A stretch of 64,000 nt of DNA, from assembly GCA_965285935.1 (NCBI GenBank), contig OZ260664.1, positions 102,610,001-102,674,000 of the forward strand. The letters are read 5' to 3'. This document shows, in pieces, positions 51,079 through 57,312 of this stretch; position 1 is the stretch's first letter; the number at the start of each line of letters is the position of its first letter. The position numbers were made by a program, and so were the translations under genes. This DNA comes from Ophelia neglecta (Eukaryota). The notes below the pieces were generated by a model. That model did no database searches. It was given only the letters and a program-made list of their open reading frames with translations, and had not been told where the DNA came from.

Positions 51079-52771
51079 TTATCCGACCGTATCCACAGCA
51101 GCATTAAGTAGTATAGTGAGTGCTAAAAGTGAATGTTGAATGCAGGAACGAAAGACACAGAGAGACAGCATTACAAGTAGTAAATGTGTGTATCCATGAT
51201 GATTATTCTCTAATCGTATCCAAAGCAGCACTACAAGTGGTGTAGACAGTGTTAATGGTGAAGGTTGTCTGTCGGAAACGAAAGCAGCAATGCAAACATT
51301 ACTTCTAAGAAAATCTATATCTGCACCCCAATCACGTAGAACGACCGTCCGTGGGGTGCAGACAATATCGGCTATCTGTTTTAGTCCAAACGCCTTGCTT
51401 TTGAAATCCAACGGCGACAGTAATCCATATGTGTGCCCCAGCCCTATAGAACACTGTCCTATGTGTATTTGAGTGAAACCATAGAACATTCATTTTTCAA
51501 TTACCCTGATCCAGCGGAATTACTGCATATTTCACCACAACATCACTCTATAAAATTAGCATAGTGGAACCAAGCCAGTGATTATGCAACGGTGAAAAGC
51601 GATTGTTGACAATACTGTTTAGTGGCGGATCCAGGATTACAGGAGGGGGGGACCCACATTTTCCAAAAATGAAAAAAGCAATGTCCCTGTTACCAACTCT
51701 CTGAAACCACCTTGCGTAGGTCCGGAAATAGGCCCTGGTCTGGGCCTACTTTTTGGCAAAAGCCCCCCCCCCCCCTAAATCCGCCACTGCTGTCTGAGGA
51801 AATAAAATTAGCATATCCTGAAAGCATTCCCCAATACAATAAATGTCAGCTGCGTTTTGTTAAGCAGCAGCTCATAATAAACTCCTATAAATTCCTATGC
51901 CCATCAAACACTTTTGTCTGTGTATTGACTATTCTTTAGTAGAAATCTCCTTACTGGGAGTGTAATTTCAGGTTGCAATAAAGATAAATAATATAAACCC
52001 TTCCCTCGTCCACCAGAGCGAACCACACTAAGACCATGTATAACATATATATATATGAATCTTTTAACATCCACGTTCCATAGACTAGTATACAGTGGAA
52101 TCAATAGCAAAACTTTCTCTACACAAATTTTTGCCAGGTGTTAGCTACATGTATATCTAATGCCTCCTTTTTAAATGTTAGAATTGATGCTAGAATGTTT
52201 CTTTCCTCAACTAATGGGTATGTAAGGAAATAGGATACTTTTAATGTAATATCCTCTAATTTCTCCGGTATGTCGGTCTGGACCCTGGAGTTTTATTTTA
52301 GTCGTCTTGTCTTGATATAACTTCTGATTAACCTTGCTTTTCGCGGAGAGAAACTGGTTAAACCAAAGCTGGATCGTCTTATTACATTTGGCTGAGTTTC
52401 CCAGACGCTTGCATATGAGCTGTGATTTGATTGTTGTAGCCTGCTCTTGAAATGACATTCGCTGAGCTACTCTGCTTTCAGGGGAAAGATAATATTGTTT
52501 GACCAGGGGGCCGAGTTATCTTTCAATGTCGCTTCCTGAATTATTCAGGCTAATAACTGTGATTTGACTGTTATTGGTAGGATTTGGTATGACATTTTCT
52601 GATTCCCTCTGTTATCTTGAGATTGAAGCTGCGGCTTGGCCAAAGCCGGACTGTCCTTCCATGTCAATTTATAATTCACTCTTAGTGTCTGGGAACAGAA
52701 ACGCTTCTGTGACCATTGATGGCAGTTCTGAAAAAAAGGACACTCGCTTAATTCTTGTTTGATGGCATTGA
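51079..52771 (-). pseudogene. decayed C-terminal (putative catalytic, possibly GT61-like) domain of the repeat gene
   Basis: Three ORF-track segments lie in one frame separated by stops; LDFKSKAFGLKQIADIVCT..VV..WGA..FL weakly resembles GT61 DF..F.EQ..T..HGAGL..FL. Confidence 0.4.
51620..51789 (+). mobile_element. hAT-like MITE (CAGTGGCGGAT TIR)
   Basis: AGTGGCGGATCC...AATCCGCCACTG; inverted copy at 62050-62237. Confidence 0.75.
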
Positions 52772-55700: not shown

Positions 55701-57312
55701 TGTGACTGACTCTTGTTTTTGGTGTAGATGTCCCGGTTTGAGTGTGGCCGGCTGGCCGTGATGTGTCTCTCTGGGACAGACTCTTGTTTGTTGGTGTAGA
55801 TATCCCCGTTTGACTGTAGCCCCCTGGTCGTGATGTGTCTCTCTGTGACTGACTCTGGTTTGTTAGTGTAGATATCCCGGTTTGACTGTGGCCGGCTGGT
55901 CGTGATGTGACTCTCTGTGACTGACTCTGGTTTGTTGGTGTAGATATCCCGGTTTGACTGTAGCCGCCTGGTCGTGATGTGTCTCTCTGTGACTGACTCT
56001 GGTTTGTTTGAATAGATATCCCGGTTTGTCTGTAGCCGCCTGGTCGTGATGTGTCTCTCTGTGACTGACTCTGGTTTGTTAGTGTAGATATCCCGGTTTG
56101 ACTGTGGCCGCCTGGCCGTGATGTGTCTCTCTGTGATTTACCCTGGTTTCTTGGTGTAGATATCCCTGTTTTTCTGTGGCCGGCTGGTCGTGATGTGTCT
56201 CTCTGTGACTGACTGTTGTTTGTTGGTGTAGATATCCCGGTTTGACAGTAGCCGCCTGGCCGTGATGTGTCTCTCTGTGACTGACTGTTGTTTGTTAGTG
56301 TAGATATCCCGGTTTGACTGTAGCCGGCTGGTCGTGATGTGTCTGTCTGTGACTGACTCTGGTTTCTTGGTGTAGATATCCCGGTTTGACTGTGGCCGGC
56401 TGGTCGTGATGTGTCTCCCTGTGACTGACTCTGGTTTGTTGGTGTAGATATCCCGGTTTGACTGTGGCCGGCTGGCCGTGATGTGTCTCTCTGTGACTGA
56501 CTCTGGTGTGTTGGTGTAGATATCCCGGTCTGACTGTGGCCGGCTGGTCGTGATGTGACTCTCTGTGACTGACTCTGGTTTGTTTCTGTAGATATCCCGG
56601 TTTGACTGTGGCCGGCTGGTCGTGATGTGTCTCTGTTTGACTGACTCTGGTTTCTCGTGGCTGGTGGCACGGTTTGTTTGTACCCCTCTGGCTTTGATTT
56701 AACCGTTTTCGTCTGACTCTGGTTTCGCTGGATATGTTGATTGTACCTGTCTGGTCTCGCTCTGATCATGTTTGACTTACTTCGGTTCCTTGGGCCTGAT
56801 CCACCACTTCTATCGTAGTAGTTTTGTTCAACCATCAAATCCTTTTGGGAATCGCTTGTGTTCATCACATGTTTTATTGACCCCTGGTATAGAACATTGA
56901 TAAGACTGGGAACTTTCGGCTTAGTGTCAAAAGAAGTTCTTTTATTTGATATTGGTGTTTTAACTTCATTACTTTTCATGAGAGAGCCAGGTCGAATCGT
57001 CCTTGACGAAACCAGTCCAGGTTCAGGAAGTCGATATTTTGTATTAGTCCAAATAGTATTGGGGGCAGCAACTCCCTGCCGGTTGGGATAGACAACATCG
57101 GGATGTCCCTTATGATTGAATAGGGTATTCGCATCGGAAATCGGTCTCTGGTAGACAGGCACTTGGGCACGTGGGACTTTCAAGGTCCCTCCATGGACTG
57201 CCAGAGTCTGTCCGAAATGATAGAACAGCCGTAATATCAACCACATAACCACGACTGCTACCACGAATAGAAAGGGACGGCTGTATATAGGTTTGAAAGA
57301 CCTCCAAGACAT
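52772..57312 (-). CDS. type II membrane, mucin-like tandem-repeat protein (1513 aa if one 1-bp deletion is corrected; otherwise ends at 55648)
   Basis: MSWRSFKPIYSRP + hydrophobic anchor FLFVVAVVVMWLILRLFYHFG, ~190-aa stem, then 24-aa repeats with no stop in the repeat frame; frameshift near 55713-55720. Confidence 0.7.
52836..56660 (-). repeat. 72-bp coding VNTR, ~53 copies (QSQSQRDTSRPAGHSQTGISTPTN)
   Basis: GTGTAGATATC anchor and its variants recur every 72 bp from 52843 to 56586 except one 71-bp interval (55651 to 55722). Confidence 0.98.

Follow-up and report, generated by a model that had tools for sequence, protein, structure and literature searches.

Candidate lineage-specific type II Ser/Thr-rich repeat protein, truncated behind its array, in DNA of Ophelia neglecta

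The stretch of Ophelia neglecta DNA analysed here (64,000 nucleotides, positions 102,610,001 to 102,674,000 of contig OZ260664.1, assembly GCA_965285935.1; hereafter the window, whose own numbering is used throughout) carries on its minus strand a frame that starts at an ATG at 57312 and leads through a hydrophobic segment and a unique stem into an array of 53 tandem repeat units. The reading we prefer, to which the sequence lends about an even chance, is that the frame specifies a type II, Ser/Thr-rich repeat protein that is lineage-specific and is cut short immediately after the array. The best evidence comes from old copies of the repeat that flank the array: those ahead of it have kept their frame and those behind it have decayed. 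An earlier interpretation of the region 51079-57312, here called the sequence-only reading, had instead proposed a glycosyltransferase-type gene with a dead catalytic end, a proposal that is weighed below.

The open frame, its anchor and its repeat array

Ahead of the array the frame from the ATG runs for 220 codons without a stop, an outcome that appeared in none of 20,000 Markov simulations of this stretch, and outside the locus the only open frame of at least 150 codons in the window is a reverse-transcriptase fragment of the long interspersed nuclear element (LINE) type. The start codon and a basic 12-residue N-terminal tail, predicted to be cytosolic, lie at 57277-57312 (minus strand, as are all features below unless stated otherwise). 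They are followed by a hydrophobic segment (aa 13-31, 57220-57276; mean Kyte-Doolittle value 2.3 over 19 aa) that is predicted to be a type II signal anchor, and by a hydrophilic, Cys-free stem (aa 32-175, 56788-57219) that is unique, no relative of it having been found. The intact anchor and the some 220 unique N-terminal codons open beyond chance, both put forward in the sequence-only reading, are thus borne out. Judged by hydropathy and composition, with the orientation predicted, the tail, single anchor and stem have the layout of type II Golgi transferases. Just 5' of the ATG, a pyrimidine-rich stretch with two AG dinucleotides (57313-57345) could be a weak splice acceptor of an intron in the 5' untranslated region (UTR), the nearer AG ranking only in the top 23% of 3,758 AG sites by an ad hoc score.

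The array itself (52838-56652) comprises 52 units of 72 nt and one of 71 nt, and has recently been homogenised, its units being 95.6% identical to their consensus and units 32-37 recurring as units 41-46. Each unit encodes 24 residues, of which nine are Ser or Thr in the consensus, and the 52 full units hold 43 N-x-S/T sequons, mostly one N-x-S sequon per unit, much as the sequence-only reading had described. Over these 52 units Ser and Thr make up 36% of residues and Pro about 7%, a composition that places the array among the Ser/Thr-rich tandem repeats of the mucin-like class. The part of the interpretation that we regard as supported is that a stalk of Ser/Thr-rich repeats, grown locally, follows a type II-like anchor, and that the N-terminus stayed open during the decay of the DNA past the array.

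The same reading had taken the roughly 53 repeats to be one stop-free stalk; the number of units holds, the single frame does not. Unit 13, the 71-nt unit, lacks one base at its end; the deletion leaves a homopolymer of five bases (T5, 55716-55720) and shifts the frame, while the sister unit 26, which differs from unit 13 at three positions, keeps the base. As assembled, the ORF (open reading frame) continues past the deletion for 22 off-frame residues and ends at the stop codon at 55648-55650, after 554 aa. If unit 13 were of full length, the frame from the ATG would stay open for 1,513 codons, up to the TAG at 52772-52774 that closes the array's own frame 21 codons beyond the last unit. The deletion may be an error of the consensus or may mark a shortened allele, so that the product would have 1,513 or 554 aa. 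Shortened alleles of this type are described for carboxyl ester lipase (CEL), in which one-base deletions in an O-glycosylated coding variable number tandem repeat (VNTR) give truncated products with an off-frame tail, the distal ones occurring in the general population (PMC8692231). CEL itself is a secreted protein that keeps its enzyme domain ahead of the VNTR, whereas no enzyme domain is detected here.

The sequence-only reading had also pointed to the lack of stops in repeats rich in codons one transition from a stop; our numbers say little on this. The 49 distinct array variants comprise, in the ATG frame, 38 nonsynonymous, 11 synonymous and no stop-making changes (34.3, 12.3 and 2.4 expected), and the other two frames contain four and three stop-making variants, so that the ATG frame alone has none. 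The probability of seeing no stop among the 49 is nevertheless 0.089, and all three minus-strand frames of the array consensus are open; the absence of stops in the repeats is therefore weak evidence for coding.

Old repeat copies on either side of the array

The stem and the array are separated by a pair of old copies of the repeat, U1 of 63 nt and U2 of 72 nt (together 56653-56787), which are in frame, stop-free, poor in T and about 40% diverged from the array consensus. The unit at 56724 matches the consensus at 44 of 72 positions, compared with a maximum of 34 of 72 over 114,955 control positions, which upholds the view that a proto-unit in the stem marks a local origin of the repeat. On the far side of the array there are eight further copies, D1-D8 (52271-52837), of 78, 72, 73, 63, 74, 68, 70 and 69 nt, decayed and in mixed frames. 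For five of them the agreement with the consensus is 36-40 of 72 positions, again above the control maximum of 34, and the D1-D8 region as a whole aligns to a tandem consensus with a score of 327, while none of 92 control segments exceeds 216.

The two groups of old copies differ little in age as measured by divergence from the array consensus (40% for U1/U2 vs 47% for D1-D8). They have fared differently as coding sequence. U1 and U2 retain the frame without a stop (probability of no stop by chance 0.08-0.17), while D1-D8 have accumulated seven stops and four non-triplet lengths in 189 codons. T content follows the same division, with 14 of 135 nt in U1/U2 and 7 of 72 in the array consensus against 130 of 567 in D1-D8 and a background of 30% (Fisher P=0.0008 and 0.009). 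At the rate at which D1-D8 decayed, about 13 breaks would be expected in the 220 N-terminal codons, and none is seen. This asymmetry suggests that the array and the part preceding it have been held as an open hydrophilic frame, and that the DNA past the stop was released from this constraint. The lengths 63, 69, 72 and 78 nt among the old units are all multiples of three.

A history consistent with these observations would begin with an old array of 63/72-nt coding units forming the distal part of the gene. A stop, today the TAG at 52774, would then have arisen within that array; the copies behind it would have become non-coding and decayed, and one copy ahead of it would have been amplified about 53-fold by unequal crossing-over or slippage. 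The product, if transcribed, would come from a single coding exon and consist of a short cytosolic tail, a predicted signal anchor, the Cys-free stem and a Ser/Thr/Gln-rich repeat stalk with no catalytic domain. The stalk is predicted to be N- and O-glycosylated like a mucin, and the protein, tethered to the membrane or shed from it, may serve as a spacer or as part of a coat that bears glycans, a role in which length and hydrophilicity matter and the exact residues do not.

Allelic variation, relatives and competing readings

Alleles were compared in three runs from one sample, each with ~620-690 million letters of contigs, in which allelic differences amount to 2-3%. The depth of the three runs is even over the ORF and the upstream DNA, as expected of DNA. 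The second haplotype has a 12-nt in-frame deletion in the stem (56924-56936), the only indel listed in the ORF; those listed upstream are of 1, 1 and 3 nt. No stop occurs among the 12 single nucleotide polymorphisms (SNPs) listed of the 21 in the ORF, the nine others lying near the anchor. Indeed, at the end of the anchor and the start of the stem (57127-57266) two alleles that differ by nine letters over 140 bp occur in all three runs, marking a hot spot of variation. The contigs listed represent two alleles, with no third copy at or above 80% identity, which makes a recent intact donor paralog unlikely.

Several observations weigh against a constrained, protein-coding locus of the kind we favour. 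The assembled sequence is frameshifted in unit 13. For the N-terminal part the ratio of nonsynonymous to synonymous polymorphism (pN/pS) is about 0.5, from seven nonsynonymous and five synonymous changes among the SNPs listed, which does not depart from neutrality (P=0.17), and heterozygosity in the ORF (21/626, 3.4%) is not below that upstream (at least 21/1,076, 2.0%). Omega among the recent array variants is 1.24, so that no constraint at the amino-acid level is visible in the repeats, and identity by codon position over the ten old units (0.54/0.57/0.60, P=0.53) shows no excess of change at third positions. Proline, at the low share given above, is scarce in the repeat, and both topology and glycosylation are predictions.

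Nor does the predicted protein have a relative in any collection searched. Word searches with the N-terminus gave 203 candidates among proteins of 304-970 aa, none with E<=0.1, and 355 among proteins of 388-2000 aa, none with E<=1. The ESM Atlas returned a best value of 0.76 for a 221-aa piece and no usable match for the 554-aa ORF. In metagenome contigs, 86 matches to an N-terminus pattern included no relative and a repeat-unit pattern had no match, and exact protein look-up found none of five queries. For a fast-evolving stem from a species with a single sample listed, this lack of relatives does not show that the protein is novel.

Of the competing readings, the one that survives best, which we nonetheless consider unlikely, places the array in an intron. 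The coding exon would end after 177 codons, comprising tail, anchor and stem, at a splice-donor-like site (GAA/GTAAGT, 56775-56783, phase 1, cut after GAA at 56780) that lies 7 nt inside U1; the array and the old copies would be an intronic minisatellite, and a type II protein, possibly an enzyme or a lectin, would continue downstream. In type II proteins the tail, anchor and stem commonly share a first coding exon. The donor-like site, which the sequence-only reading had not noted, stands at the border of unique and repeated DNA, and an ad hoc score puts it among the best 0.4% of 3,559 GT sites on the minus strand; its presence there counts against our preferred reading. GTAAGT itself occurs 29 times in 128 kb (both strands). 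The unit consensus, however, is one base from GTAAGT at this place, so that the site may be due to chance. The three unit frames open by composition, the omega of 1.24, the old units without a codon-position signature and the many other minisatellites in the window, several with triplet periods, would all suit an intronic array, in which the frameshift in unit 13 would be harmless. On the other hand, if all copies were equally neutral, U1, U2 and the founder of the array should not have stayed T-poor and stop-free while D1-D8 drifted. Moreover, no Pfam match above cut-off was found in 145 minus-strand ORFs of at least 54 aa or in 59 of 112 short exon candidates. Without a recognised downstream exon, the rest of such a gene would have to be unrecognisable or more than 50 kb away. 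On the plus strand, 118 of 121 ORFs likewise had no Pfam match above cut-off, the other three lying at the reverse-transcriptase fragment.

Rather unlikely, in our estimate, is that the whole locus is a recently dead gene in which unit 13 truly carries a frameshift, the N-terminus drifts without having met a stop yet and the array is a neutral minisatellite. A pN/pS indistinguishable from 1, a heterozygosity in the ORF at least equal to that upstream, the array omega of 1.24 and a frameshift present in the assembly would be expected of such a locus, and 21 neutral SNPs would include no stop with a probability of 0.40. Against it, the only ORF indel listed for the second haplotype is in frame, and across the array the ATG frame has no stop-making variant (P=0.089). 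The gene would furthermore have to have died far later than D1-D8 decayed, so that even then a truncated repeat protein would long have been under selection.

Downstream DNA, known systems and genomic setting

The sequence-only reading had described the 1.7 kb behind the array as a single frame broken by many stops, the remnant of a catalytic domain. The array's own frame in fact ends at the TAG at 52774 and would meet 37 stops over the 1.7 kb, a third of which is decayed repeat, a tenth a miniature inverted-repeat transposable element (MITE)-like element and a seventh another minisatellite. Beyond D1-D8, with their mixed frames, follows unique AT-rich DNA (51790-52270, GC 0.34) with no recognisable domain, which is likely to be 3' UTR or intergenic and has 6/6/14 stops vs 12.3 expected (P=0.11). 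Next come the MITE-like element (51620-51789, no strand assigned), which has terminal inverted repeats and a sister copy at 62051-62236 (74% identical, opposite orientation), and further unique DNA without a domain or a deficit of stops (51290-51619, P=0.70). An identical 14-mer at 51815 and 51563 (minus strand) flanks the MITE-like element at a spacing of 252 bp and may represent a target-site or local tandem duplication. The last feature is a second, unrelated and decayed minisatellite (51030-51289, no strand assigned) with units of 59, 60 and 67 nt, which accounts for half of a 136-codon ORF at the end of the region described earlier. The ATG frame does have fewer stops than expected over the 1.7 kb (17 vs 33, P=0.001); this deficit is owed mostly to the eight decayed repeat copies in mixed frames, and once these and the MITE-like element are set aside it falls to P=0.08 over the remaining 1,191 bp.

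Searches of this DNA for a domain found none. Hidden Markov model scans of the downstream frames, proposed in the sequence-only reading as a check of its enzyme, matched no Pfam domain in three whole frames, in 30 tiles in three frames or in shorter pieces. Seven downstream queries gave no significant match in the PDB, the best (E 0.37-1.7) being unrelated proteins that differed between adjacent pieces. A word search and a full phmmer search of 1.84 billion proteins, conducted with the ATG frame of the downstream region only, returned no match. An unfiltered heparan-sulfate 3-O-sulfotransferase (HS3ST)-like profile, built from 6 of 26 cyanobacterial sulfotransferases and hence distant from the animal enzymes, placed no downstream tile among its best 12 of 1,704. 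For a very old, frameshifted domain in the ~810 unique bp the sensitivity of these searches is limited. With no domain found, and with a topology common to many type II proteins, the glycosyltransferase label rests on topology alone, and at the level of sequence an enzyme origin would have to be called unsupported.

Three resemblances were followed up for 51790-52290. A likeness by eye to motifs of heparan-sulfate 3-O-sulfotransferases gave no signal with the six-sequence bacterial profile; one to GT31 enzymes of the Fringe/chondroitin-synthase type found no match in the Pfam and PDB scans, the only ones that bear on it; and dynein light chain, the best PDB match (E=0.6), gave way to an unrelated best match in the adjacent piece. 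That a single stretch should resemble three proteins so unlike one another speaks for coincidence.

That a Golgi glycosyl- or sulfotransferase gene expanded its stem and lost its catalytic domain to decay in the ~810 unique bp (51290-52270), leaving a mucin-like protein, is the least probable of the readings considered, since no transferase-family match appears in any of these searches and the array's frame has no lead into an open frame at 51290-52270, even though the topology fits Golgi transferases (PMC4202792), the unique DNA (~270 codons) has the size of a small catalytic domain, 51790-52269 shows the slight stop deficit given above and a domain decayed like D1-D8 and also frameshifted could fall below the search filters.

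The closest parallel among known systems is the origin of lineage-specific mucins by gain of exonic repeats ('mucinization', for example Prol1 to Muc10), in which a secretory-pathway N-terminus is kept and a local Ser/Thr-rich exonic repeat expands (PMC9417175). The cases treated there are mammalian secreted proteins with proline-rich precursors and signal peptides. The present locus differs in its anchor, which is predicted to stay uncleaved, in its low proline content, in the N-sequon that most units contain and in having no known precursor. Golgi type II glycosyltransferases and sulfotransferases share the short cytosolic tail, single anchor and stem (PMC4202792). Here, by contrast, repeats and then a stop come after the stem, with no catalytic domain detected in any frame, and on that ground the locus would fall outside that class. 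Type II C-type lectin receptors such as DC-SIGN resemble it in having an anchor followed by a neck of variable repeats; that neck is a helical, multimerising element with a lectin domain C-terminal to it (PMC9630629), while the stalk here is Ser/Thr/Gln-rich, has 53 units and is accompanied by no lectin domain in the window. Pfam gave no match to a C-type lectin domain in the downstream frames, ORFs or exon candidates scanned in the window.

More broadly, it is conceivable, if improbable, that a Golgi-type enzyme or receptor gene is seen here in the course of turning into a membrane mucin, its stem repeat having expanded and a stop having severed the old C-terminus, so that old repeats still alive, a newly formed array of 53 copies, old repeats now dead and an erased domain stand side by side. 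Mucinization would then reach beyond secreted, proline-rich precursors to type II membrane proteins, here those of an invertebrate. An enzyme ancestor in particular would make this one of the rare documented cases in which an enzyme that builds glycans became a scaffold that bears them, and nothing found here shows such an ancestor; no report of a transferase gene turned mucin was found in the literature, as represented by titles and abstract openings with few subscription journals. Should our preferred reading of a truncated type II repeat protein be right, it would add one more lineage-specific mucin-like gene. The value of the locus lies in the fact that repeat gain, truncation and decay can be read at a single place, where the old copies before and after the stop allow selection for an open, hydrophilic frame to be judged against an internal control.

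The window around the locus is gene-poor, with a GC content of about 39% and many minisatellites and MITE-like elements; a search against Rfam gave no match. The LINE-type reverse-transcriptase fragment lies at 31298-31981 (plus strand) in two adjacent ORFs (RVT_1, E=9e-23 and 0.011). At 58330-58381 there is a short high-copy repeat that matches many unrelated contigs and at which depth rises about 8-fold. GC-tract elements with inverted ends occupy 62467-62697, and 61538-61616 holds an inverted repeat of 37 nt. Further minisatellites lie at 277-667 (period 36), 1920-2120 (48/24), 9136-9480 (19/37), 12295-13164 (46-47) and 45282-45392 (43). Finally, a local segmental duplication relates 13790-18370 to 18543-23738 in several blocks that are 79-96% identical, with 16850-18370 and 22217-23738, for example, 96% identical.

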